A stretch of DNA of 64,000 nucleotides from Beijerinckiaceae bacterium (GTDB lineage Bacteria; Pseudomonadota; Alphaproteobacteria; Rhizobiales; Beijerinckiaceae). Within the stretch, counting starts at the first letter, position 1; the number at the start of each line of letters is the position of its first letter. Of this stretch, positions 8,214-26,936 are shown piece by piece. The notes beneath the pieces were generated by a model, which was not told the DNA's origin, made no database searches, and worked only from the letters and a program-made list of their open reading frames with translations. A program made the position numbers and the translations under genes. The DNA is taken from positions 24,425-88,424 of the forward strand of contig JAUXWZ010000146.1 in NCBI GenBank assembly GCA_030684835.1. Direction: 5' to 3'.

Positions 8214-8253
8214 GACACTTGCGGCTGCGGTGGTGGAATGGGGCCGTTAAACG

Positions 8254-10104
8254 CTACGCGTCCATCGTTTCCAACTCGGCGATCATGCCCTCGATCATGC
8301 CAAGCCCGATCTGCCAGAAGCCCGGATCGCGCGCGTCGAGACCGAAGGGCTTCAGCAGTTCGGTGTAGTGCTGCGAGCCGCCCGCAGAGAGCAGCGCGAA
8401 GTACTTGTCCTGGAAGCCGCCCGCAGCGTTCTGATAGACGCCATAAAGGGAGTTCACCAGGCAATCGCCGAATGCGTAGGCGTAAACGTAGAAAGGCGAA
8501 TGAACGAAGTGCGGAATGTAGGCCCAGTAGGATTCATAGCCGGGCCCGAAGCGAATGGCGGGTCCGAGGCTTTCAGCCTGCACGCTCATCCACAATTCCG
8601 AAATCTGTTCTGACGTGAGCTCGCCCTCGCGGCGGCTCGTGTGCAGCTTGCGTTCGAAGGAGTAGAACGCGATCTGCCGCACCACGGTGTTCAGCATGTC
8701 CTCCACTTTCGCCGCGAGCATCGTGCGGCGCTGCGAGGCGTTGCTTGTGTTGGCGAGCAGGGAGCGGAAGGTCAGCATCTCGCCGAACACGGACGCGGTT
8801 TCGGCAAGCGTCAGGGGCGTGGGCGCCATCAGCGCGCCGTTTGGCGCTGCAAGCACCTGATGCACGCCGTGACCCAACTCGTGGGCCAGCGTCATCACAT
8901 CGCGCGTTTTGCCTTGATAATTCACCAGCACATACGGATGCGCGGACGGAACCGTTGGATGCGCAAAGGCGCCGGGCGCCTTGCCGGGACGCACAGGCGC
9001 GTCGATCCAGCTGTCGTCAAAGAAACGCTTGGCGATGTCTGCAAGCCGAGGCGAGAATTGACCATACGCTGTCAGGACAAGATCGCGCGCTTCGTTCCAT
9101 TGGTAAACGCGCGTTGGCGCGTTCGGCAGCGGCGCGTTGCGGTTCCAGTAATCCAGAACATCGCGATCAAACCATTTTGCTTTGAGTTTATAATAGCGAT
9201 GCGACAGGCGCGGATAGGCGTCGCGCACAGCGTCAACCAGCGCATCGACGACTTCACGCTCGACGCGGTTCGACAGATGGCGTGAATCTGCGACGTCATC
9301 GAAGCCGCGCCAGCGGTCTGAGATTTCCTTGTCCTTGGCGAGCGTGTTTGTGATGAGCGCGAACGTGCGCAGGTTCTTTGACAACGTGGCGCCAAGCGCT
9401 TCGGCCGCAGCCTTGCGCACGTCCTCAGTCGGGTCCTGCATGAGGTTGAGGGTCGGCTCTAGCGTCAGCTCGCGGCCGCTCACATCAAAGCGCATGGCGG
9501 AGATGGTTTCGTCGAACAGACGATTCCATGCGCTGCGTCCGGTTACTGATTTTTCGTGGAACAATTGCTCCAGCTTGTCATCGAGCTGGTAGGGTTTCTC
9601 GCGGCGCACATCTTCGATCCAGGGACGGTAGCGCGCGAGCGGGCCCGCGCTCATCGCCTTGTCGAGCGCTGCGTCGTCGATGCGATTGAGCTCCAGCGTG
9701 AAGAACAGGAGGTCAGAGGAGGCGTTCGTCACGCGCTCCTGTGCGTCGCCATAGAATTTGGCGCGATGGGGATCGGTCGTATCGCCCGAATAGATCAGGC
9801 CGGCGTAGGACATGATGCGGCCAAGGAGATCCTCCAGCGCTTCATAATCCTTCACCGCCTCAGTAAGCTTTTCGCTCGCGTTCGGGCCGGTCGTGATGTC
9901 GGCCAGCTTGCCCCGCCATTTTTCCGCAAAGGCGCGGCACTCGGTTTCTCCCCGCGCGAGATCGCTCGCATAGGCGGGCGAATCCATCGCCGGGTATAGG
10001 TCTGCGAGGTTCCATTCCGGCAATTGGCCCAGATCAGCCGAAGCCCGCGCCGCCGCCTCTGCCGGAGCGAAGGCCGAATGAGTCGAAAACGCCTTGAGGG
10101 TCAT
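8254..10104 (-). CDS. pepF: Oligoendopeptidase F (M3B)
   Basis: LPEWNLADLY N-terminus, TLAHELGHGVH zinc motif, LAETASVFGE and HSPFYVYAYAFG. Confidence 0.93.
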   Translation of the reverse strand: MTLKAFSTHSAFAPAEAAARASADLGQLPEWNLADLYPAMDSPAYASDLARGETECRAFAEKWRGKLADITTGPNASEKLTEAVKDYEALEDLLGRIMSYAGLIYSGDTTDPHRAKFYGDAQERVTNASSDLLFFTLELNRIDDAALDKAMSAGPLARYRPWIEDVRREKPYQLDDKLEQLFHEKSVTGRSAWNRLFDETISAMRFDVSGRELTLEPTLNLMQDPTEDVRKAAAEALGATLSKNLRTFALITNTLAKDKEISDRWRGFDDVADSRHLSNRVEREVVDALVDAVRDAYPRLSHRYYKLKAKWFDRDVLDYWNRNAPLPNAPTRVYQWNEARDLVLTAYGQFSPRLADIAKRFFDDSWIDAPVRPGKAPGAFAHPTVPSAHPYVLVNYQGKTRDVMTLAHELGHGVHQVLAAPNGALMAPTPLTLAETASVFGEMLTFRSLLANTSNASQRRTMLAAKVEDMLNTVVRQIAFYSFERKLHTSRREGELTSEQISELWMSVQAESLGPAIRFGPGYESYWAYIPHFVHSPFYVYAYAFGDCLVNSLYGVYQNAAGGFQDKYFALLSAGGSQHYTELLKPFGLDARDPGFWQIGLGMIEGMIAELETMDA

Positions 10105-13353: not shown

Positions 13354-13482
13354 TCAGTGTTGCGCGTTCGCTTTTAAGTGCTCGCGCAATTGAATGTTCT
13401 GTGGCGCGCAGGCGCGATGCGGAACGGCATTGTGCGCCAGCGCACGTGCGCTCAAACGGGAATACGGGAAGCTCGCAGGGCC

Positions 13483-15465
13483 ATGAGATTCGATTTCAGA
13501 TTTTTCCCCCTCTCGCTCGGCCCTCTCTCGCTTGCCGCGCTTCTTGCGCTCGCTTCCGCGCCCGCTTTTTCGCAGGATTCAGCGGATCGCGCTGAGGCGG
13601 TCACCGCGCACTCGATTAACGAGCCTTCCGCTCCGATGTCGAGCGCGCCGCAGATGGCTTCCGAGCCCGTCGCCGAATCGCGCGACGAACAGGCCGCAAA
13701 CGCGCTCGCGCCAGACATCACGATGGAGACCCCCGCTCAGGTCGCGGTAGAGCGCGAAGCCGCGCCAGAGGCGGAACCTGTGGCTCAGGCGCCCGAGCAA
13801 GCCCGCCCGGCGGCTGTCGAGGCCCAGCCTGTTGCCGAGGCTGCCGCCCCAGCTGCGCCAATGCCGACGGAGACCCCGGCGCCCGACCAGACCGCCGTTT
13901 CTTCGCCCCCCATTCAAGCCGAAATTGCTCCCCAGGAGGCCGCGACGACGGCTCCCGAGCCGCCTCAGCCGGCGGTGGAAGCCGCTTCGGCAGCTGGGCC
14001 CAATCCCATTCAGCTGGCGCTGCGGGATGCTGTGGAGCGGATGAAAGACTCGCCTATTGCCCGCGCGGCGCCCGGTCAGACACCGGCCGCCGCCTTGCGG
14101 CAGGAGCGGGACGAGATCGCCGCAGTTTACCAGGAGCGGGACTTCGCGCCTTTGTGGATTGAGGGGAAAACTTTCACAACAGCCGCCCGCGCCGCCGTTG
14201 TGCAAATCAACCGTGCACGCGAGGACGGGCTGGACCTCACCCAGTATCTTCCGCCGACCCTTGACGCCGCCTCTCCTGATGCGATGGCCCGCGCCGAACT
14301 CGCGCTCTCGCAAGCGGCTGTGGGCTTTGCCCGGCAGGCCAGCGGCGTGCGCGTGGCGCCGCGCGTCATTGGCCTCATCAGCTCGAAAGCGGAGGTTGCG
14401 TCGCCCCGTGACGTCCTAATGACGGCTTCTGCGGCTCGCGACGCCGGAGAGGCGCTCGCTGCCTATAATCCGCCCCACCAAGGGTATCGCAATTTGCGCG
14501 AAAAGCTTGCGGAGTTGCGCCGCGAGCGGCCCGCGCTCGCCAGTCCGCGCATTGCGCCGGGCCGGGTGTTGAAAGTTGGCATGAAGGACCCGCGCGTGCC
14601 GCTGGTGCGGGCGCGGTTCGGAATCGACGCCGCAGCCGATGGCGCGAACAGCGAACTTGTCTATGACACGCGCGTCGCCAGCGCCGTCGCCGATTTTCAG
14701 AGGGCCAACGGGCTGCCGGGCAATGGGGCGCTCACCGCGCGCACCATCGCGCTGCTGTCGGGCGGGGACCCGGCGCGGCTGGAGCGCGAAATCCTCGCGA
14801 GCATGGAGACGTGGCGCTGGGCGCCGCGCGACATGGGCGAGACGCGGATCGAGGTGAATATCCCCAATTATACGGCGCGCCTGATCCGCGACGGCAAGGT
14901 CGTCCATTCGATGCGGGTTATCGTGGGCAAGCCGGAGACTCCGACGCCCGTATTCTCGGATGTTATGCGCTTCATGGTGGTCAACCCGTCCTGGCATGTG
15001 CCGCAGTCGATCATCCGCAAGCAGCTTGCGCAGGACCCGAACTATTACGCGCGAAACGGTTATGAGGTGGTCCGCAAGGGCGCGAACGTGTTCGTTCGCC
15101 AACCTCCGGGCGAGCGGAACGCGCTGGGCAATGTCAAGTTTATGTTCCCGAACGACCACGCTGTTTACATGCACGATACGCCCAGCCGGGGCCTTTTCAA
15201 CGCATCTCGCCGGGCCTTCAGCCACGGCTGCGTGCGCGTGGACCAGCCCTTCCGGTTCGCCGAGGCGCTGATGGAGGAGACCGGCTGGAGCGAGAAGCGG
15301 CTGCGGTCCGTCCTTGGCCGGGGCGAGCGCACAATCAACTTCAACGCGGGCGTGCCGGTGCACATGATGTATTTCACGGCGTTTGTGGACGACGAAGGCA
15401 AGCTTCAGCTTCGGGATGACCTCTATGGCCTGTCGCGCAAGCTTCAGGCCGCGCTGGGGTTGTAG
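13483..15465 (+). CDS. L,D-transpeptidase (YcbB/LdtD type) with PG-binding domain
   Basis: Signal peptide, Ala/Pro/Glu-rich linker, PG-binding segment (DTRVASAVADFQRANGL), VNIPNY, VYMHDTP...FSHGCVRV. Confidence 0.92.
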   Translation: MRFDFRFFPLSLGPLSLAALLALASAPAFSQDSADRAEAVTAHSINEPSAPMSSAPQMASEPVAESRDEQAANALAPDITMETPAQVAVEREAAPEAEPVAQAPEQARPAAVEAQPVAEAAAPAAPMPTETPAPDQTAVSSPPIQAEIAPQEAATTAPEPPQPAVEAASAAGPNPIQLALRDAVERMKDSPIARAAPGQTPAAALRQERDEIAAVYQERDFAPLWIEGKTFTTAARAAVVQINRAREDGLDLTQYLPPTLDAASPDAMARAELALSQAAVGFARQASGVRVAPRVIGLISSKAEVASPRDVLMTASAARDAGEALAAYNPPHQGYRNLREKLAELRRERPALASPRIAPGRVLKVGMKDPRVPLVRARFGIDAAADGANSELVYDTRVASAVADFQRANGLPGNGALTARTIALLSGGDPARLEREILASMETWRWAPRDMGETRIEVNIPNYTARLIRDGKVVHSMRVIVGKPETPTPVFSDVMRFMVVNPSWHVPQSIIRKQLAQDPNYYARNGYEVVRKGANVFVRQPPGERNALGNVKFMFPNDHAVYMHDTPSRGLFNASRRAFSHGCVRVDQPFRFAEALMEETGWSEKRLRSVLGRGERTINFNAGVPVHMMYFTAFVDDEGKLQLRDDLYGLSRKLQAALGL

Positions 15466-15710
15466 AGGTCCCGCTTTGTCAAAGGTCAAGCTCGCGCATT
15501 AACGCAGCGCTTTTGACACAAAGCCGCCACGATTGCCGTATTGGTGTTGGGTCGTGTTTGTTTTTGGGTGGGACGTGAAGCGAAATTTGGTCATGGTTAC
15601 GGCCTCTTAACGCTTCTCGGCAACAGTTCGCTCAGGTTAACGGCTGGTTTGTATCACCGCCGAAACCCTAACAAGGCGCGCGCTGCGCGTCTTTGGAAAG
15701 GTGAGTAGAG

Positions 15711-17273
15711 TTGCGAAAGTCGCGCCTTCCGATGTCCTTGCCTGTGGCCCTGCGCCGCGTCGCCGCCGCGTCACTTTCCGTCGCAGCCGTTCTGGGCGCC
15801 ATGGCCCCCACGTCGACCCAAACCGCTGTCGCCAATGGCGACACCCGTACGCTTTATCTCACGCATGCGCACACTGGTGAAACGATCACCGCGACTTACC
15901 GGGTGAACGGGTCTTTTGATCCAGCGGTTCTTGAGAAGCTCAATTATTTCCTGCGAGACTGGCGCAACGACGCCGTTATCAAGATGGACCCGCGTCTGTT
16001 CGATGTCGTCTGGGAAACCCATCGGGGTGCAGGGTCCACGTCTCCCATCCGCATCAATTCCGCTTACCGCTCGCCGGAGACGAACTCGATGCTGCGCCGC
16101 CGCTCGCGCGGGGTCGCCGAATTTTCGCTCCACACCCGCGGCATGGCCATGGACATCCATGTCCCGGACGTCACCACGGACAGCTTGCGCCACACCGCCA
16201 TTCGCATGCAGCGCGGCGGCGTCGGCTTCTATCCCTCATCGGGCTTTGTGCATCTGGACGTCGGCAACGTCCGCGCCTGGCCGCGCATGCGGTATGATCA
16301 GCTCGCGCGCATTTTCCCGGACGGCAAGTCGATTCATATCGCCGCCGACGGACGCACCTTGCCCGGTTATGAAGAGGCCCGCCTCACGCTCGCGGCGCGC
16401 AACGGCAGCTATGCGCCGTCGCTGGCGCAGGTGAAATCGAAGGGCTTCTTCGCAACGCTCTTTGGCTGGGAAGACCCCGACGATACGCCGGCTCCCGCTG
16501 CGACGCCGTCTCGCGGGCGCCGGGCGCCTGCCCCGACGCAGGTCGCGGCGTACGCTCCAGAGCAACCGCGCTCGCCCGCGCTGGCCCGCGCCGAGGCAAA
16601 CCGTCCACGCGGCGAGACGTTCGCAGGCCCCGCGAGTGTTGCCGCAACGCCGCAGGAGGCCGCCCGCGCCGCCGTGATAGCGAGCGTGCCGATGCCGCCG
16701 CGCCGCCCCGTCGAAACTGTTGTAGCGTCGATAACGCCTGCTGCGCCTCTCCTGGGCCCGTTGCCGCCCGTCCGTCCCTCCGACTTCAGTGTCGCTTCGA
16801 TAGCGCCCTTGAGCGCGCCACTGCCGCCCGCCCGCGCGGTTCGCGCCGGCATCAACACGGACGTCGCAAGTCTTTTCGGGAGCGCATCAGGCAGGATCGC
16901 CGCGACGCCAGGTCTCCCGCCGGTCATCACCGAGGGCGCCGAGCCAATGGCAGCCGCCGTTCTCGCCTACGCCCCGCAGCAAGCCCCTGTGCGCATGATC
17001 CGGCAGGCGCGCACCGCGCCGGTCGCCGCGCAGCCGGTGGGATTGCGCGCCGCGCGTAATCGTGTCCCCGCCGCTTTGACTCCGGCGCGTCTCGACCGCT
17101 CCAATTTTATCGCCATGACGGCGCCAATCAGCATGGAAAGCGCGACGTCGGGCAGCACGCTTGGCTCTTCGCTCGCGCCGCTGCGTCCTGCCGCGCGCCG
17201 GGAAGCGCGTGATCTGATGTTTGGCGCGCCGCAGGGCAACCTTGTCGTCAGCGAATTACGTCCGAGGCCGTAA
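15711..17273 (+). CDS. DUF882 / peptidase M15 (YcbK/MepK-like) with a Pro/Ala-rich C-terminal extension
   Basis: LNYFLRDWRND...MDPRLFD, SAYRSPETN, SLHTRGMAMD and FVHLDVG zinc ligands. Start may be TTG 15711 or ATG 15732. Confidence 0.9.
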   Translation: MRKSRLPMSLPVALRRVAAASLSVAAVLGAMAPTSTQTAVANGDTRTLYLTHAHTGETITATYRVNGSFDPAVLEKLNYFLRDWRNDAVIKMDPRLFDVVWETHRGAGSTSPIRINSAYRSPETNSMLRRRSRGVAEFSLHTRGMAMDIHVPDVTTDSLRHTAIRMQRGGVGFYPSSGFVHLDVGNVRAWPRMRYDQLARIFPDGKSIHIAADGRTLPGYEEARLTLAARNGSYAPSLAQVKSKGFFATLFGWEDPDDTPAPAATPSRGRRAPAPTQVAAYAPEQPRSPALARAEANRPRGETFAGPASVAATPQEAARAAVIASVPMPPRRPVETVVASITPAAPLLGPLPPVRPSDFSVASIAPLSAPLPPARAVRAGINTDVASLFGSASGRIAATPGLPPVITEGAEPMAAAVLAYAPQQAPVRMIRQARTAPVAAQPVGLRAARNRVPAALTPARLDRSNFIAMTAPISMESATSGSTLGSSLAPLRPAARREARDLMFGAPQGNLVVSELRPRP

Positions 17274-17855: not shown

Positions 17856-18661
17856 TTCCCAATGTGCTTTCGATTGCCGGCTCCGACCCATCTGGCGGCG
17901 CGGGAATTCAGGCGGATCTGAAGACGTTTTCGGCGTTGCGCTGTTACGGCATGGCGGCGCTGACTGCGCTTACCGCGCAGAACACGCGCGGCGTCAGCGG
18001 CGTGCATGTGCCGCCAGCCTCGTTTGTCGCCGCGCAGATTGACGCGATTTTCGCCGATGTGCGTGTCGACGCGGTGAAGATCGGCATGCTCGCGTCAGCT
18101 GACATTGTTGAGGCGGTGGCGGATCGGCTGCGCGCCCACAATGCGCGCAACATCGTGCTCGATCCGGTGCTCGTGGCCACCAGCGGCGATTCGCTTGGCG
18201 CTCCCGATGTCGTGGAGGCGATGAAGCTTCACCTTCTTGCGCTCGCAACGGTCATCACGCCGAACACATCTGAGGCGATGCGGCTTGCCGACGTTTCCAG
18301 CGAGCCTCAAAACGCTGCGGATCTTGGGACGTTGGCGCGCGCGCTGCATGGGCTCGGCGCCCGCGCTGTGCTCGTGAAGGGTGGCCATCTGACAGGGCAT
18401 GACGCGCCTGACGTGCTCTTCGACGGGACCAAGCTGGAGACGTTCAACGCGCCGCGCATAAATACGCGCAACACCCATGGCACAGGGTGCACATTGTCAT
18501 CGGCCATCGCTGCGCATCTGGCGCGCGGCTTCTCGCTTGCAACCGCAATTGCTGTCGCGAAGGACTATCTTACGGATTCGCTTGCCGCGAGCGATGAACT
18601 GTCAGTGGGCTCCGGGTCCGGTCATGGGCCCGTGCATCATTTCCACAATCTGTGGCCGTGA
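17852..18661 (+). CDS. thiD: Hydroxymethylpyrimidine/phosphomethylpyrimidine kinase
   Basis: LSIAGSDPSGGAGIQADLKTF, VKIGML, LVKGGHL, THGTGCTLSSAIAA and GPVHHF. Confidence 0.96.
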   Translation: MIPNVLSIAGSDPSGGAGIQADLKTFSALRCYGMAALTALTAQNTRGVSGVHVPPASFVAAQIDAIFADVRVDAVKIGMLASADIVEAVADRLRAHNARNIVLDPVLVATSGDSLGAPDVVEAMKLHLLALATVITPNTSEAMRLADVSSEPQNAADLGTLARALHGLGARAVLVKGGHLTGHDAPDVLFDGTKLETFNAPRINTRNTHGTGCTLSSAIAAHLARGFSLATAIAVAKDYLTDSLAASDELSVGSGSGHGPVHHFHNLWP

Positions 18662-19534
18662 TCAGGGGATGGCCGGAATGATGCGGGCGACGTTCGCAAG
18701 GATGGCGTTGCGCTGCGCCAGCGTTGCATCGGCTTCCGCGTAAAACACGACAGCGATCAACGGCGCGCGGTCTGGAGGCCATAAAATCGCGACGTCATTT
18801 GTCGTGTTGTGCTCGCCTGTCCCCGTCTTGTCTCCGACCCGCCAATCCGTCGGCAGGCCAGCGCGCAGGCGGTCGTCGCCGGTCTTGTTGTCCAGCAACC
18901 ATTGCGTAAGCTGCGCGCGCGAAGAGGCTGAAAGCCCATCCTCAACGAGGAGCTTGCGCATCGTTCGCGCGAAGGCGCGCGGCGTCGACGTGTCACGCAG
19001 ATCGCCCGGGGTCGCCTCGTTCAGTTCGGGCTCGATACGATCGGACCGAGTCACATAGTCGCCGAGCGCGCGGACAAATTTTGTCAGACCAGCAGGGCCG
19101 CCAAAGCTTGCGAACAACAGGTTCGCCGCCGTGTTGTCGCTGAGCGTCATGGCGGCCGCGCAAAGCTGGCTCACACTCATCCCTGCGTCGGTGAATTTTT
19201 CCGTCACCGGCGACCATGTCACCAGATCGCTTTTCGAATAAGCGACACGACGCGACATGTTTTCTTCGCCGCGCTCTGCGCGCCAAAGCGCAAAACTCGC
19301 GGAGAGCAATTTGTGAGTGCTGCACATCGCGAAACGATCGTCGCCGCGATGCGCATGCTCCTGATTTGTCGCCGTGTCGATGATCGTCACGCCGAGCCTG
19401 CCGCCGTGCCGACCTTCGAGCAGGGCGCAGCGCTGCGTGAACGTCTCAGCCTGCGCTTGCGCGCCGCCGCTGGCCAACGCGCAAGCGCTGACAAGAAAGT
19501 GGCGGCGCGAAAGCGTGATCATTTCTGCAATCAA
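18662..19534 (-). CDS. bla: Class A beta-lactamase with a Tat signal
   Basis: FAMCSTHK (SxxK), SDNTAAN, EPELN omega loop, DKTGTG and N-terminal SRRHFL. Confidence 0.95.
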   Translation of the reverse strand: MIAEMITLSRRHFLVSACALASGGAQAQAETFTQRCALLEGRHGGRLGVTIIDTATNQEHAHRGDDRFAMCSTHKLLSASFALWRAERGEENMSRRVAYSKSDLVTWSPVTEKFTDAGMSVSQLCAAAMTLSDNTAANLLFASFGGPAGLTKFVRALGDYVTRSDRIEPELNEATPGDLRDTSTPRAFARTMRKLLVEDGLSASSRAQLTQWLLDNKTGDDRLRAGLPTDWRVGDKTGTGEHNTTNDVAILWPPDRAPLIAVVFYAEADATLAQRNAILANVARIIPAIP

Positions 19535-20463
19535 AGCTTTTCGAAAATCTCGACCATGCGTTTGCGCATGGCCTGATCGGGCAGGCGGCCCATGCCGGCC
19601 TTGAGATTGTCGGTCATGTATTCAGGCCGGTCCGTGCCCGGAATGACGGCCGTGACCGCAGGATTGCCGAGCAGCCACTTGAGCCCGAACTGCGCCCAGC
19701 TCGTGGCGTCGATTTCTTTGGCGATATCGGGCAGAGGCTTGCCGGCGGTCGCCTTGAAGAAACGCCCGCGGCCGAAGGGTAGATTCGTGAGCACGGCGCA
19801 ACCTGCGTCCTGCGCGGCGGGGATGAGGCGCTCGTCGGCGTTTCGATTAACCATTGAGTAGTCGATCTGGAAAAAGTCCGGCTTCTCGCGCTTTACGATT
19901 GTTTCAACTGCCGCATAATCGCGCTCGAATGACGAGGAGATGCCGATGTATCGGCATAGGCCCTGCTTCTTCCATTCGCGCAGCAGCGCCAAATCCTGAT
20001 CCGGCTTTCCAGGGTTGTGAAGCTGCATCAAGTCGACCTTGTCGACCTTCAGCCGCGCAAAGGAGCTTTTCATTTCTGCGGTGGTCGCCTCCGCGTTGTT
20101 CACGCGGACTTTGGTCGCAAGGAAAATCTTGTCGCGCAGCCCTGTCGCTGCAAAAAGATCACCAAGGCGCGCTTCGGCCTGCCCGTAGGAGGGCGCTGTG
20201 TCGACGAGTTTGCCGCCGCCAGCAACGAGCGTCTTGAGGACGTTCGCGCGCATGTCGAATTTTTCTTTGTCATCCTGAAAATCGAAGATGATCGCCGTGC
20301 CAATGCCCACCGACGGCAGCATTTCGCCGGTCGAGGGAATTTTACGCGATAATAGCGCGGCCTGCGCGAAGGCTGGGAAGGATGGCGACAGCACCGTCGC
20401 GCCAGCTGCGCCTGCGAGCGCGATGGCCTGACGGCGGCTGAGGCTCAAAAACTCATTCGTCAT
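19531..20463 (-). CDS. Aldo/keto reductase with a Tat signal peptide
   Basis: SRRQAIAL...AFA signal, then GIGT, DTAPSYG, FLATKV, DLMQLHN, IGIS, QIDYS and VIPGT. Confidence 0.92.
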   Translation of the reverse strand: MTNEFLSLSRRQAIALAGAAGATVLSPSFPAFAQAALLSRKIPSTGEMLPSVGIGTAIIFDFQDDKEKFDMRANVLKTLVAGGGKLVDTAPSYGQAEARLGDLFAATGLRDKIFLATKVRVNNAEATTAEMKSSFARLKVDKVDLMQLHNPGKPDQDLALLREWKKQGLCRYIGISSSFERDYAAVETIVKREKPDFFQIDYSMVNRNADERLIPAAQDAGCAVLTNLPFGRGRFFKATAGKPLPDIAKEIDATSWAQFGLKWLLGNPAVTAVIPGTDRPEYMTDNLKAGMGRLPDQAMRKRMVEIFEKL

Positions 20464-20498
20464 GTCGTGTGCTCCGTTGCGATGGTTGCAGTCTAAGT

Positions 20499-21776
20499 TC
20501 ATTTTTGCCGTTTCTCTTGCGCCCTTCCAAGCGCAATCGCGATAGCCGCCCACCCGATCATGATGGGAATGGCGACCGCGGCGACGCCTGTCAGGCCGAG
20601 GCCGAGGCTGCGGAGCCCGGTAAAGAGCCAACTGAAGGCCAAATCGCCGCCGCGAAACACTGCCGTATCGATCAAATTCTTCGCCTTGTACTTTTCTTCG
20701 ACGGGAACCGACGTGAAGAAAATCTCGCGCGCCGGGTTCGAGAAAGCGAAATTGCCGACGCGCTGCAAAACCTGGAAGACAACGATGACCGCCAGCGCGG
20801 GCGCGACGGCGAGGGCTGCGAAACCGATAGCGAACACAAGTGGCAGAACCGCGGCTGACGGCCCGGCGCCAACGCGTTTTACAATCCGCCCTGTCGCGAA
20901 AAACTGAAATCCAAGCGTGAGCAGACTCGCCGCCAGATCCATGCCCGCAAAAATGCGCGTGCGGGTCGCTGGGTCAGTGGAGGCGGCGCGCACGACGTCG
21001 ATCTGGATGAAGTAAAGAAACGTGCCTGCGAGCGAGAGCAGGGCGACCCACGCCGCAATGCCGGCAAGATAGGGCGAGCGCAGGATGAGCTTGAAGCCAT
21101 CAAACATGCCGCCGCCCATTGGCGCCTGTTCGGTGGGCTTCTCGGACTGCTGCAAATCGGTGCGTTGCGGCGCTGCGCGCTCCAGTCGGATGGCGCAAAA
21201 GACCGCTAGTTCAAGGAGAATTGCAGCGACGATCAGAAGATTGACGGGCCCAAGCGCGCCCGCGAGCGTCACGGTGACAGTGGAGCCCAGCAGCGTGCCA
21301 GCCGAACCTCCAGCCGCAATGAAACCGAACAGTCGCTTGCTTTGCTCCGTGCGGTAAAGGTCGGCCATGAACGACCAGAACACCGACACGGCGAACAGGT
21401 TGAACACGCTGACCCAGACGAAGAAGACGCGCGCGGTTTCAACGCGCCAGGCGTCCGCCTGAAGCAGAACCCAGAAGACCGCCAGATTGAGAATGAAGAA
21501 GTGATAGACCAGCGGGATAAAGCGCTTGCGCGGCAGGCGCGCGACGGCCGCAGCATAGATTGGCGAGACGATCAACATGACGAAGAACGTGGCCGTGAAG
21601 AGCCATTGCAGGAAATCGCGGCCCGCCGCGGCGCCCATCTCGTCGCGCAAAGGGCGGAGGATGAAGTAGGAGGCGAGAAGAAAGAAGAAGTAGGCGAAAG
21701 ACCACAGGAGCGCTTTGACTTCTTCCGGCTTGGCTTCCACCAGCCTGCCGACGGCCCGTTGCACAATTGCTGTCAC
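20499..21776 (-). CDS. MFS transporter of the TLC/Npt (ATP:ADP translocase-like) group
   Basis: About 12 TM segments with YFILRPLRDEMG, VSVFWSFMADLY...KRLFGFI and NPAREIFF...KYKAKNLID. These resemble the AAA/TLC nucleotide-translocase family. Confidence 0.8.
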   Translation of the reverse strand: MTAIVQRAVGRLVEAKPEEVKALLWSFAYFFFLLASYFILRPLRDEMGAAAGRDFLQWLFTATFFVMLIVSPIYAAAVARLPRKRFIPLVYHFFILNLAVFWVLLQADAWRVETARVFFVWVSVFNLFAVSVFWSFMADLYRTEQSKRLFGFIAAGGSAGTLLGSTVTVTLAGALGPVNLLIVAAILLELAVFCAIRLERAAPQRTDLQQSEKPTEQAPMGGGMFDGFKLILRSPYLAGIAAWVALLSLAGTFLYFIQIDVVRAASTDPATRTRIFAGMDLAASLLTLGFQFFATGRIVKRVGAGPSAAVLPLVFAIGFAALAVAPALAVIVVFQVLQRVGNFAFSNPAREIFFTSVPVEEKYKAKNLIDTAVFRGGDLAFSWLFTGLRSLGLGLTGVAAVAIPIMIGWAAIAIALGRAQEKRQK

Positions 21777-21914
21777 GCTTTTTCCCCCTCGACCCCGTCA
21801 GCATTCTTTCCGAAACGCGGAGCGCGGCAAGTGCTGTTAGCGCAGATAGCGCGGAGTTGATGGTTTGCAGTGGCCCCGGTTCACACTAAAAAGCAGGTAA
21901 CAGGGGACTGGCGG

Positions 21915-23334: not shown

Positions 23335-23982
23335 CTACAACACAACCACACGTGCGCCGACGCGCACGCGATTGTAAAGATCGGCAACATCGTCGTTGAG
23401 CATGCGGATGCAGCCCGATGACACAGCCTGACCGATCGTCCAGGGCTCATTTGTCCCGTGTATGCGGAACAACGTGTCGTTCTTGCCCTGATAGAGATAG
23501 AGCGCGCGGGCGCCGAGCGGATTGTCGATGCCGCCGTCCATGAAGCGGGGAAGATCCGGCCGGCGCTTCAGCATTGCGGCGGGTGGCCTCCAACTGGGCC
23601 AGGCCGCCTTGCGTCCAACCTGCGCGCGGCCGCGCCACGAAAATCCCTCGCGTCCGACGCCGACGCCGTATCGGATCGCCCGACCATCGCCCAGCGAATA
23701 GAAGAGGGCGCGAGTTCTGGTGTCGATGGTGATCGTTCCTGCGCTCTGGCGCGTTGGATCGGCGACCAGCGCACGCGTCGATCTGCGGATGGCGCGCTGC
23801 GGCGCAGCGTATTCGTCAACAAAGTAATCGGGCGAATTGATCGATGCTGTCGTGATGCGCGTGTCGCGTGAGGCTTGCGGGCCAGCTTGAAACCATTGCG
23901 CAGAGGCGCTCAGCGAAGAGCCGGCCAGGATCCCAATTGATACAAGAATTGCGCGGGCCGTGTGCGTGTGACATGTCGGCAT
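23335..23982 (-). CDS. L,D-transpeptidase (ErfK/YbiS/YkuD family)
   Basis: Sec signal, AIRYGVGVGREG, NPLGARALYL and FRIHGTNEPWTIGQAVSSGCIRM. The start is uncertain (23982-24015). Confidence 0.92.
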   Translation of the reverse strand: MPTCHTHTARAILVSIGILAGSSLSASAQWFQAGPQASRDTRITTASINSPDYFVDEYAAPQRAIRRSTRALVADPTRQSAGTITIDTRTRALFYSLGDGRAIRYGVGVGREGFSWRGRAQVGRKAAWPSWRPPAAMLKRRPDLPRFMDGGIDNPLGARALYLYQGKNDTLFRIHGTNEPWTIGQAVSSGCIRMLNDDVADLYNRVRVGARVVVL

Positions 23983-24072
23983 GGAACACCCCTGCATGAC
24001 CAACGCCTTTTTCACAAAAAGGCAAAGTTGTGACAGGACGTGAACGGGGAGGCGGGCTCGAATGTTCCGCGC

Positions 24073-25407
24073 CTAGCGGCGGGGCCAGCGGAAATCGTCG
24101 GCGCGACCTGCACGGCTTTCAGGTGGCGGGCTGTCCAGCAGGTTTCCGTCGCCGCGCAGGGGCACTGTGGCCAGTTCTCCGCCCGGCGATAGCGCGCTGG
24201 CGGTCAGGGGCGCCACACGTCCTGCTAAAGGCCGGACTGGCGCGACAGGTTCGGGGGCGGGGACAGGGACGGGCATGCCGCCGGGACTGGACGTTTCTGG
24301 CTGCGGACGGGCATCGAACGAGGCGTTTTGCGGCGCTCCCGGGGCGTCGGCGATGGCTGGCGCAAGCGCCCCGGGCGAGCGCAGATCGAGACGCCGCTTC
24401 ACATCGGCCTCAAGGAAGTAGGCGAGTTTGCGGGCGCCTGCACGGGTGAAGTGAACGCCGTCACCGGTTCGGATGCGCGTCACGTGGCCGTTGAGATCAG
24501 GGCCGGAGAGCGTGAAGCGATTGCGCTCGTCAACGAACGGCTCCCAGACATCGACATACGTCGCGCCCGTTTTCTGCACGGCCTCGCGATAAATTTCGTT
24601 AAACTGGGCGATGTCCGCCGACAGGCGTTCGTTCTTCATGACGGTCATGCCGACCCAGATGAGCGGGACGCCCTTGTTCCGGAACGCTTCCGCAATAGCG
24701 GTTGCGCGCGCCCGGTAAGTGTCTTTCCATTTGTCGGACAGGATATCGGCGGTTTGTCCGCCCTCGCGGATCGGCTGACGGTCGTTGCTCCCAAGCATCA
24801 TGACGGCGAGGTCGATCTTCTGGTCAGAGGCCAGAAACTCCTGAATGGTTTTTGGCCAGTCATAATAGTCGTCGCGGACGAGGCCGGTGTTCTCGCGGGC
24901 CCGCCGCAAAACCGTAACATTATGTTCGGCATACGCGTCCGTAACACCCTGCGCGAGCATCTGGGCGACGTTATCGCCGAAGATGGCGATCACGAAGGGT
25001 GGTCCGGCGGGAGCTGTTGGTTGAACGGTTGCATCAGGGCCGGAGTTTGCGACGGGTGCTGCAACGCCTGCGGTTGCGCTGGGTGTGTCTGGCATAGGCG
25101 TGGACGCGGAGGCGGCGGCCACTGCGGCAGCGGAGTCCGCCGGCACTTCCTTCGCGAAGCCTCGCCGTGGCGCGACTCCGCGCGTCATTCTGGTTGGTCG
25201 TTGAATGACCACCGGCGGCTTGCGCCGCACGGACTGTCGCTGGCGTTCGAGGCGCCAGAAGACGGCGGGACTCGACTCGTCCTCCCATTGCGCCACCGCG
25301 GGTGTCGGCGTCACGCTGACGCCGAGAACGGCAACCAGAACGGACGCTGCGAGGGACGCGGCGATCAAAAACAGCAGGCGGCGCGGATCCGAGAGTGTCG
25401 TTCGCAT
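24073..25407 (-). CDS. DUF459 / SGNH-GDSL-like periplasmic protein
   Basis: Signal/TM anchor, NTGLVRDDYYDW, MLGSNDRQ and DGVHFT. Block I reads GDNV instead of GDS. Confidence 0.85.
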   Translation of the reverse strand: MRTTLSDPRRLLFLIAASLAASVLVAVLGVSVTPTPAVAQWEDESSPAVFWRLERQRQSVRRKPPVVIQRPTRMTRGVAPRRGFAKEVPADSAAAVAAASASTPMPDTPSATAGVAAPVANSGPDATVQPTAPAGPPFVIAIFGDNVAQMLAQGVTDAYAEHNVTVLRRARENTGLVRDDYYDWPKTIQEFLASDQKIDLAVMMLGSNDRQPIREGGQTADILSDKWKDTYRARATAIAEAFRNKGVPLIWVGMTVMKNERLSADIAQFNEIYREAVQKTGATYVDVWEPFVDERNRFTLSGPDLNGHVTRIRTGDGVHFTRAGARKLAYFLEADVKRRLDLRSPGALAPAIADAPGAPQNASFDARPQPETSSPGGMPVPVPAPEPVAPVRPLAGRVAPLTASALSPGGELATVPLRGDGNLLDSPPPESRAGRADDFRWPRR

Positions 25408-25424
25408 GATCGTATTATAGCGCC

Positions 25425-26753
25425 TCAGCGCGCTTTGCGCATCCGTTCCAGCAGCGTGGCCGTGGCGTACCCGTCGGCGACTATGCCCTGCCGGCGTTGG
25501 AAGGCGCGGATGGCGTTTTGCACCTGTTCTCCAATGCGTCCATCAATATCGCCGACATTGAAGCCGAGGCGTTGCAGATTGCGCTGCATCTCCATGACTT
25601 GCTTGGTGGAAAGCGGCTTTTCGCCCTTGGGCCAAGTTCCCGCCATAGGGCCGCCGCCAGCGATGCGCGAACTCAGCATCGCGACCGCCAGCATGTAGGC
25701 TTGGGACATGTTGTAGCTGCGGATGACGCGGTAGTTAGCCGTCACAAGAAACGCCGGTCCGCGCACGCCTGCGGGCAGCCAGAGTCCGGCTTCGCCATTG
25801 TTCGTCAAAGCGCCCCCGTCCGCGCGGCGCACGCCCATGCGCGCCCAGTCGGAGAAGCGGCGCATGGCCTGCGGATCATGCGGCGACACATCGAAACGCT
25901 CTGGCAATGTGACTTCATAGCCCCAGGGCAACCCGCGCTGCCAGCCATGCTGGGCGAGATAATTGGCGGTTGAGGCGAGGGCGTCAGGAATGTTGTTCCA
26001 GATGTCCTTATGCCGGTCGCCGTTGTAGTCCACCGCCCATTTCATGAAGCTGGACGGCATGAACTGCGTATGACCCATGGCGCCGGCCCACGACCCGGTC
26101 ATTTGCGAGGCGGCGACATGGCCCTCTTGCAAGATTTGAAGAGCGGTCAGCAATTCATTGCGGAAGAACTCCGGGCGGATGCCTTTGAAAACAAGCGTCG
26201 CCAGCGAACGGAACACATTCTTGTTGCCTGTGAATCCGCCAAAGCTTGTCTCGACGCCCCAGATGGCCAGAACGACGCTCGGATCAACGCCATACTGGCG
26301 TTCGAGGTTAGCCAGGGTCTGCGCATATTCACGGGCCATTGCGCGGCCGCGGTCAACGCGTTGCTGTGTCACGGCGCCGTTGACATAATCCCACACCGGG
26401 CGGACGAATTCCGCCTGCCGCGCAGACGTCGCGCCAATTGATGGGTCAATGGTGATCTTGCCCAAGGCTGCGTCGAATGTTGCGCGCGACACGCTGCGGG
26501 CGCGCGCCTCTGGCCAGAGACCTTCGACGAAATTGCGGAATGCGACGGCGTCGCTTTTCGCGCTCGCGGCCTGCTGGGGTTTGGCCGTCTGCGCGCCCGC
26601 AGGTTTCGCGTGCATGACAAACGCGGTGACGCAGGCCACCCCCGCCGCCACGAGGAGCGCGCGTAACGCTTGCCCTGCCGTTAGTCCTGATCGCGTCCAG
26701 CCGATCGGCCGTTCCGGGTGCGTCACCCGCATTTTTCTACGCAAGGCCGCCAT
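25425..26753 (-). CDS. Lytic murein transglycosylase (MltB/SLT_2) with PG-binding domain
   Basis: QAEFVRPVWDY, AIWGVETSFG, GSWAGAMGHTQFMPS, SYNMSQAY and a C-terminal PG-binding domain. The start is uncertain (26732/26753). Confidence 0.93.
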   Translation of the reverse strand: MAALRRKMRVTHPERPIGWTRSGLTAGQALRALLVAAGVACVTAFVMHAKPAGAQTAKPQQAASAKSDAVAFRNFVEGLWPEARARSVSRATFDAALGKITIDPSIGATSARQAEFVRPVWDYVNGAVTQQRVDRGRAMAREYAQTLANLERQYGVDPSVVLAIWGVETSFGGFTGNKNVFRSLATLVFKGIRPEFFRNELLTALQILQEGHVAASQMTGSWAGAMGHTQFMPSSFMKWAVDYNGDRHKDIWNNIPDALASTANYLAQHGWQRGLPWGYEVTLPERFDVSPHDPQAMRRFSDWARMGVRRADGGALTNNGEAGLWLPAGVRGPAFLVTANYRVIRSYNMSQAYMLAVAMLSSRIAGGGPMAGTWPKGEKPLSTKQVMEMQRNLQRLGFNVGDIDGRIGEQVQNAIRAFQRRQGIVADGYATATLLERMRKAR

Positions 26754-26936
26754 GCCTATAACTCCGGCGCTAACTGGGGGCCGTACTGGTGGCCCCAACT
26801 CCAACATGCACGCAAAGTATGGCGAACTTGTTTCGGATTCATTTACCACAAGCGGAGCCGGGGTGCTGGCGGCGGAGGCGTTGCCGTGACACCATTCCGC
26901 CCGAATCGCCATCAGCGGCGCAGGAGTGCAACGATC

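Follow-up and report, generated by a model that had tools for sequence, protein, structure and literature searches.

The three-gene unit and the recurrence of the carrier–reductase pair

We analysed a stretch of 64,000 nucleotides from a Beijerinckiaceae bacterium (assembly GCA_030684835.1, contig JAUXWZ010000146.1, positions 24,425 to 88,424; hereafter the window), in which three co-directional open reading frames (ORFs) occupy positions 18662-21776 of the minus strand. They encode a carrier of the major facilitator superfamily (MFS), an aldo/keto reductase (AKR) with a predicted signal for twin-arginine translocation (Tat) and a class A beta-lactamase (bla). All three were confirmed as genes and each is a member of a known superfamily. 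The ORF coordinates, collected in Table 1, agree with the 35-nt gap between the first two genes given in the initial annotation. It is strongly supported by the comparisons that follow that the conserved unit at this locus consists of the carrier and the reductase.

In a set of 25 genomes of the genus, about half of which contain an ortholog of the carrier, the AKR gene was adjacent in all 12 genomes with that ortholog, even where the flanking genes differed, and an AKR ortholog was found in none of the 10 genomes without the carrier. Similarly, in the loci of a further 80 species from the Alpha-, Beta- and Gammaproteobacteria (49-73% identity), the AKR gene lay directly downstream of the carrier gene in 56 cases, and in 66 of the 80 an AKR gene was no more than 2.5 kb away. 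When the phylum was sampled evenly (401 Pseudomonadota genomes), the carrier subfamily was present in 20 genomes, with an adjacent AKR gene in 16. The gene order in that sample was either AKR and carrier, or AKR, a gap of 766-879 nt that would fit one gene of the F420_oxidored (FNO)-like type described below (judged by its size only), and carrier. As carrier and reductase are neighbours in several gene orders, their adjacency survives rearrangement. The co-occurrence of this MFS with Tat-signal AKRs, which the initial annotation had named as a point to be checked, was clearly positive across the three proteobacterial classes and in several gene orders. In the tree of the carriers, the arrangement with the AKR gene directly behind the carrier gene was basal, and a single, well-supported clade of mixed Alpha- and Betaproteobacteria has gained the FNO-like gene; the carrier of the window falls into a Beijerinckiaceae clade in which all loci have the basal arrangement.

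Table 1. Features of the carrier–reductase–beta-lactamase unit (positions within the window)
Feature	Position	Strand	Basis or remark
Intergenic region between the carrier gene and the divergent hemH (plus strand)	21777..21869		presumed to contain the promoter of the unit
NTT/TLC-like MFS carrier, 425 aa, GTG start, 12 predicted transmembrane helices	20499..21776	-	Pfam, family profile, AF2 fold
Carrier–AKR spacer, exactly 35 nt, with GGAG ribosome-binding site 9 nt before the AKR ATG	20464..20498	-	sequence
Tat-signal aldo/keto reductase (AKR), 310 aa	19531..20463	-	Pfam Aldo_ket_red
Predicted AKR Tat signal peptide, residues 1 to ~35 (SRRQAI, h-region, AFAQA)	20359..20463	-	predicted from motif; RR invariant in relatives
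Class A beta-lactamase (bla), 286 aa from ATG 19522	18662..19522	-	NCBIfam bla_class_A; start inferred from orthologs
Predicted bla Tat signal peptide (MITLSRRHFLVSACALASGGAQAQA)	19448..19522	-	predicted from motif; RR kept in 10 orthologs
Adjoining stops of the convergent genes bla and thiD (TGATCA, zero spacer)	18659..18664		sequence

The carrier, the Tat-signal reductase and a second partner enzyme

The carrier reached 47 bits with the Pfam model MFS_1 and 25.2 bits with the model TLC (PF03219), whose gathering threshold is 21 (21.8 bits in a six-frame search). No NCBIfam family was reached, and a search of the PDB with the single sequence gave no match. We then used a profile of 13 members of the carrier family, which matched only one of 177,635 PDB sequences, the nucleotide transporter (NTT) NTT1 of C. 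pneumoniae (CpNTT1; 9j3n_A, E 2.9e-12), with no second PDB sequence at E values up to 10. In the profile alignment, 13 conserved charged positions were identical or conservatively replaced between the carrier family and CpNTT1, and the two have several motifs in common: an N-terminal Y-x-x-L-R-x-x-[KR]-D, FW-x-F, KR, SPY and K-x-K-x-K-x-x-x-D-x-x-x-x-R. The AF2 model of the carrier (pLDDT 92.8) has 12 transmembrane (TM) helices, and the first three ranks of a Foldseek search were taken by 9j3l, 9j3m and 9j3n (AtNTT1 and CpNTT1) with TM scores of 0.77-0.81 and E values of ~1e-10, four orders of magnitude ahead of the next match, NorA (5.6e-7). As the family profile recognises NTT1 only and the top folds are NTTs, the carrier is, judged by profile and model, a distant but specific relative of nucleotide transporters. 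The TLC/Npt-like motifs that had been noticed initially are borne out by these results.

The NTT family includes carriers of NAD, namely PamNTT4 (Protochlamydia NTT4, NAD+/ADP) and C. trachomatis Npt1, and NTT homologs are widespread in free-living bacteria, where their roles are unknown (PMC5381601). One explanation of the locus would be that the carrier is a generic transporter of ATP/ADP or similar nucleotides, which is co-regulated or merely co-inherited with the reductase and has no mechanistic link to it. The best structural matches are indeed ATP/ADP translocators, and automatic annotation names the orthologs 'NTP/NDP exchange transporter'. Nevertheless, the adjacency of the two genes was kept through at least four gene orders, in three classes and with changing flanks, and gain and loss of the two genes within the genus match perfectly, which chance co-inheritance does not explain. 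We therefore consider a generic transporter improbable.

Paralogs of the carrier (35-39% identity) were seen at five loci of the genus (L023-L027). In four of them a protein resembling TctC/Bug-type solute-binding proteins follows (e.g. L023:5775-7019 with L023:7544-8656), an assignment that was made by blast clustering with one Pfam-confirmed member, and an RR-type leader is present in three of these four neighbours; the fifth locus is cut off by a contig edge. No AKR gene was found near these paralogs. We also considered whether the link to exported enzymes extends to all proteobacterial NTT-like proteins and rejected this, since there are groups at 25-40% identity that have neither Tat-AKR nor FNO neighbours.

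The reductase matched Pfam Aldo_ket_red (PF00248) with an E value of 3.8e-33, and its closest solved relatives were 6kik and 5dan (E 1e-23); with the DkgB model it scored 71 bits, where the cut-off is 327. The catalytic tetrad D88/Y93/K118/H149 is invariant in 76 relatives and aligns with the tetrad of 6kik, and the cofactor motifs Q199, IPGT (274-277) and D285-N286 are invariant or nearly so in the same relatives. Because the tetrad and the cofactor motifs are conserved in this way, the reductase looks active. Its leader consists of SRRQAI, a hydrophobic stretch and AFAQA. SRRQAI is a weaker fit to the S/T-R-R-x-F-L-K-type motif; the RR pair is invariant in all 76 relatives and the genome encodes TatC (238.6 bits), and the enzyme is predicted to be exported to the periplasm. 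Literature searched on periplasmic or Tat-exported AKRs contained nothing relevant.

In three genomes of the genus (G004, G015 and G024) we found an AKR paralog with 45% identity that has no signal (L147:4025-4849, L148:3833-4657, L149:3995-4819). It begins exactly at the predicted mature N-terminus of the AKR (MLTRPIPSSGE) and adjoins a gene of the molybdopterin aldehyde-oxidase/xanthine-dehydrogenase type (Mo-hydroxylase), with no linkage to a carrier. This signal-less paralog is a natural control for the link between the carrier and the signal-bearing AKR.

A second enzyme with a Tat signal was found beside the carrier in 41 of the 80 loci of other species, usually with a 4-nt overlap of the carrier start. 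It is a F420_oxidored-like (NpdG-like) protein of ~250 aa with an RR leader, a GxGxxG Rossmann fold and a match to Pfam F420_oxidored. Loci with only the FNO-like gene in front of the carrier gene and loci with only the AKR gene behind it both exist among the 80. The FNO-like enzyme and the AKR belong to unrelated families, and the evident features common to both, as read from their sequences, are an NADP(H) cofactor and a Tat signal. The source genome contains no FNO-like gene and no CofD anywhere, and F420 was rejected as the relevant cofactor there, as both are missing. In two loci with the FNO-like gene and the carrier (L066:7226-8215, L076:7459-8436), the downstream gene encodes, in place of the usual AKR, a far more distant Tat-signal AKR-like protein (23-26% identity).

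The beta-lactamase gene and the surroundings of the unit

The third gene product scored 332 bits with NCBIfam bla_class_A (cut-off 200), and the class A motifs STHK (S70-x-x-K), SDN (S130), EPELN (E166) and KTG (K234) are present in its translation. It remained below the cut-offs of all named class A families compared (PAD, BKC/GPC, PEN, CTX-M, L2 and others), the best being PAD with 326.6 bits against 575. The leader consists of SRRHFL followed by AQAQA, with the RR motif present in all 10 close orthologs; twin-arginine signals, which had been noticed initially in both downstream proteins, are thus present in both, and RR is invariant in the relatives of each.

The start of bla had been placed so that it overlaps the AKR stop by the four nucleotides TTGA. 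A TTG codon at 19534 does overlap the stop in this manner. However, all ten close orthologs start with M-x(1-6)-[ST]RR and the ortholog in the genome G008 starts at the equivalent ATG, 12 nt past its AKR stop, so the ATG at 19522, which lies 8 nt past the AKR stop and gives a protein beginning with MITLSRRHFL, is the likelier start and the TTG was considered less likely. The gene order is tight whichever of the two starts holds.

In the genus, bla was found in 3 of the 25 genomes, always at the site between the AKR gene and thiD. Neither the 16 other families of the order that were compared nor the 80 related loci of other species contain it. About 15 metagenomic orthologs with 69-84% identity were recovered, of which only two have a named source, in both cases Beijerinckiaceae; in the three metagenomic contigs inspected (L116-L118), hemH is divergent from the carrier, AKR and bla genes, which follow each other in this order, and one of the three has a different gene downstream. 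In the closest relative, G001, whose carrier is 90% identical, just 77 nt separate the AKR gene from thiD. This gap contains a remnant of the bla 5' end (16/19 nt) and then one of the 3' end (~16/18 nt, aligned by eye); as these remnants stay in order, they indicate that bla was deleted in this genome. In the genome G002 the same gap holds a Pfam-confirmed brnT/brnA toxin-antitoxin pair (L015:4335-4884), and in L030 an ORF that by eye looks related and BrnA-like (about 8240-8580), so the site between AKR and thiD seems to collect accessory genes. The GC content at third codon positions of bla (0.74) is like that of the neighbouring genes and no genes of mobile elements were found near it. A recent horizontal arrival is not supported, given this composition, the 69-84% identical orthologs at the same site and the lack of mobile-element genes nearby.

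That a beta-lactamase has been attached to the unit, as stated in the initial annotation, agrees well with its restriction to one lineage and with the deletion remnants in the nearest relative. The same annotation had gone on to suggest a possible periplasmic detoxification module. In such a module of three genes, bla would act jointly with the reductase and the carrier. The tight spacing, the Tat signals on both proteins and the joint occurrence of AKR and bla in L116-L118, even with a different downstream gene, would fit such a module. On the other hand, bla is missing from 22 of the 25 genomes of the genus as well as from every one of the 80 related loci, G001 lost it and kept the carrier–AKR pair, and its place is taken by brnTA in G002 and by the BrnA-like ORF in L030. 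Hydrolysis of beta-lactams requires no cofactor. In addition, a more distant class A beta-lactamase gene (57% identity, L119:3780-5858) starts right after the stop of an unrelated Pyr_redox_2 gene, another bla at the tail of an operon with a redox gene. We regard a joint detoxification module as very improbable, and nothing ties bla to the function of the carrier–reductase pair. We read bla as a lineage-specific third cistron, a passenger that would be expressed from the promoter of the unit.

The unit is surrounded by thiD, DUF2937, peptidase M15, hemH, cutA and YkuD genes. GAGGGGG precedes the GTG start of the carrier gene by 7-8 nt. No terminator-like or promoter-like site was found between the three genes by a simple promoter and terminator scan, which has low power and a consensus that fits alphaproteobacteria poorly. 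With the same poorly fitting consensus, no promoter was seen in the intergenic region in front of the carrier gene, and the sole promoter-like site on the minus strand falls inside bla. We infer that the three genes are co-transcribed. The absence of an adjacent AmpR/LysR regulator, which had been pointed out initially, was confirmed, as the stretch from 13.4 to 27.9 kb of the window, about 6 kb to either side, contains no LysR/AmpR gene. The stops of bla and thiD form the palindrome TGATCA, with neither a spacer nor a terminator between the genes, so their transcripts must overlap or collide; the hexamer is also present in G001, where bla is deleted. Peptidoglycan enzymes are abundant nearby (window positions 13378-17273 and 23335-26912), including two L,D-transpeptidases (YkuD), a DUF882/peptidase M15 protein, an SLT_2 lytic transglycosylase and a DUF459 SGNH protein, and this synteny is common to relatives without bla.

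Proposed cofactor supply to the periplasm and comparison with known systems

According to the textbook view, the periplasm contains no free NAD(P)H. In our best reading of the locus, to which we give a probability of roughly 40% as a whole, the carrier would transport NADP(H) through the inner membrane to serve the exported reductase and bla would be a passenger. The two-gene module would consist of an AKR that Tat exports in folded form to the periplasm and a carrier in the inner membrane that belongs to the NTT/TLC (ATP:ADP antiporter) lineage. The carrier may exchange a nicotinamide dinucleotide, e.g. NADPH out against NADP+ in, which would mirror the ATP/ADP and NAD+/ADP counter-exchange of known NTTs. 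This would allow the reductase, once exported, to turn over in the periplasm, which otherwise lacks free NAD(P)H. The second exported NADP-type enzyme, the F420_oxidored/NpdG-like protein, might be served by this carrier in other lineages, and bla would be a later, lineage-specific addition that uses the transcription and the Tat route of the unit and takes no part in the chemistry of the module. Both the substrate and the direction of transport are proposals; a carrier supplying or recycling NADP(H) is favoured because the unrelated partner enzymes share NADP(H) and targeting and because the only close relatives of the carrier move nucleotides, including NAD.

Several observations weigh against this reading. 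The TLC match spans only positions 160-364 of the 491 of the model, and the identity to solved NTTs is only 15-18%. Near more distant proteobacterial NTT-like proteins, exported NAD(P) enzymes were not found. NADPH is labile in acid, and acid tolerance is common in this bacterial family. Moreover, an NTT-like gene is entirely missing from 27 of the 45 sampled genomes in which this AKR family occurs, and 24 of the 26 carrier-less AKRs that were inspected, which include loci from three genomes of the set of relatives, still have RR signals. As these AKRs of a sister clade live in carrier-free genomes, the reductase is not strictly dependent on the carrier. It appears from these distributions that the carrier is hardly ever seen in the absence of an exported NADP enzyme, whereas the enzyme can do without the carrier.

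In 15 of the 26 carrier-less loci, the AKR gene is directly followed by a gene for a membrane protein of ~210-230 aa with 6-7 TM helices, DUF6064 (L143, L145, L150-L153, L156, L158-L161, L163, L164, L167 and L169; e.g. L153:2364-2984). DUF6064 was absent from the source genome and from all carrier-linked loci, and the tree of the AKRs splits into DUF6064-linked and carrier-linked clades with 99% SH-aLRT support. DUF6064 is, on this pattern of occurrence, a probable second membrane partner of Tat-AKRs, mutually exclusive with the first. A fold search with it gave no PDB match at E below 1, and the family was not mentioned in the literature searched.

The sister clade makes a different explanation a strong rival, namely that the AKR, like any FNO-like enzyme at the locus, is exported preloaded with tightly bound NADP(H) and works by a ping-pong mechanism on two periplasmic substrates; the MFS protein would then transport, in place of the cofactor, the organic substrate or product of this reaction or some other anion. 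Folded proteins that already contain their cofactor are exported by Tat, among them the NADP-containing glucose-fructose oxidoreductase (GFOR), and in Zymomonas export of GFOR with bound NADP can suffice (Halbig 1999, as cited in PMC13673990). The existence of Tat-AKRs in genomes without an NTT-like gene, the coupling of so many of them to DUF6064, which looks as if one transporter had been displaced by another, and the distance of the carrier from characterised NTTs also fit export of a preloaded enzyme. Yet the only close structural and sequence relatives of the carrier are nucleotide carriers, and it pairs separately with either of two unrelated enzyme families that evidently share NADP(H). 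AKRs, furthermore, normally release the cofactor in every turnover. On balance we give preloading a somewhat lower probability than NADP(H) exchange by the carrier, the preferred reading.

A wider form of that reading would take the MFS subfamily as unrecognised NTT-like exchangers of NADPH/NADP+ (or NAD(H)) that keep a pyridine-nucleotide pool in the periplasm of free-living proteobacteria and power Tat-exported AKRs and NpdG-like reductases, with DUF6064 as an unrelated protein serving the Tat-AKRs of the sister clade; this generalisation is less likely than not. What the present analysis adds is the minimal two-gene form with an appended bla, the joint gain and loss of carrier and reductase at the genus level, the control provided by the signal-less paralog, and the sister clade that lacks the carrier, is linked to DUF6064 and qualifies the cofactor-supply reading. 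In the literature searched we met no description of an NTT-like carrier paired with Tat-signal NADP-type enzymes. The pairing recurs in many soil bacteria and may show how exported enzymes obtain their cofactor outside the cytoplasm. If the reading is true, a dedicated NTT-type carrier encoded together with exported NADP-type enzymes would be a direct answer to the question of periplasmic cofactors, and it would provide a first function for the many NTT homologs that free-living bacteria encode (PMC5381601). The window contains the simplest version of the module, the carrier and one enzyme, and therefore lends itself to heterologous assays of transport and localisation.

Tat-exported class A beta-lactamases are already known and are typically chromosomal (PMC10235803, PMC8262980). 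The bla product resembles such enzymes (L2, BlaC, PenA and BKC-1; nearest models PAD and BKC/GPC) in its catalytic motifs and twin-arginine signal. It differs from them in falling below the cut-off of every named family, in having no adjacent LysR/AmpR gene, in being the last cistron behind unrelated genes and in lacking the C238 partner of the C69-C238 disulfide. It would represent an environmental Tat-signal class A beta-lactamase without a named family that was fixed as the tail of an operon in one Beijerinckiaceae lineage.

The carrier is like members of the NTT/TLC family (PF03219, TC 2.A.12; AtNTT1, CpNTT1, Protochlamydia NTT4) in its MFS-type fold with 12 TM helices and in the profile match. 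In addition to the low identity and the match to the middle part of the TLC model only, it differs in being ~75 residues shorter, in its occurrence in free-living soil and freshwater proteobacteria and in adjoining genes for Tat-signal NADP-type enzymes, a context not reported for NTTs.

Among exported enzymes, the AKR can be compared with GFOR of Zymomonas mobilis, a Tat-exported NADP holoenzyme; both are pyridine-nucleotide enzymes with a twin-arginine signal to the periplasm. GFOR, however, has a Gfo/Idh/MocA Rossmann fold, a non-dissociable NADP and no dedicated carrier gene, whereas the AKR is a TIM barrel with an NTT-like carrier gene alongside, and its AKR fold places it outside the GFOR type. 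The other comparison is with CerR of Caulobacter, an NADH-type ceramide reductase with a Rossmann-type fold that was shown to be periplasmic (PMC11087976). In that study it was stated that there is no free NAD(P)H in the periplasm, and how a periplasmic NADH-type reductase is powered was left open (PMC11087976). CerR belongs to a different enzyme family from the AKR, and no carrier has been proposed for it, its authors favouring electron transfer from a membrane complex (PMC11087976).

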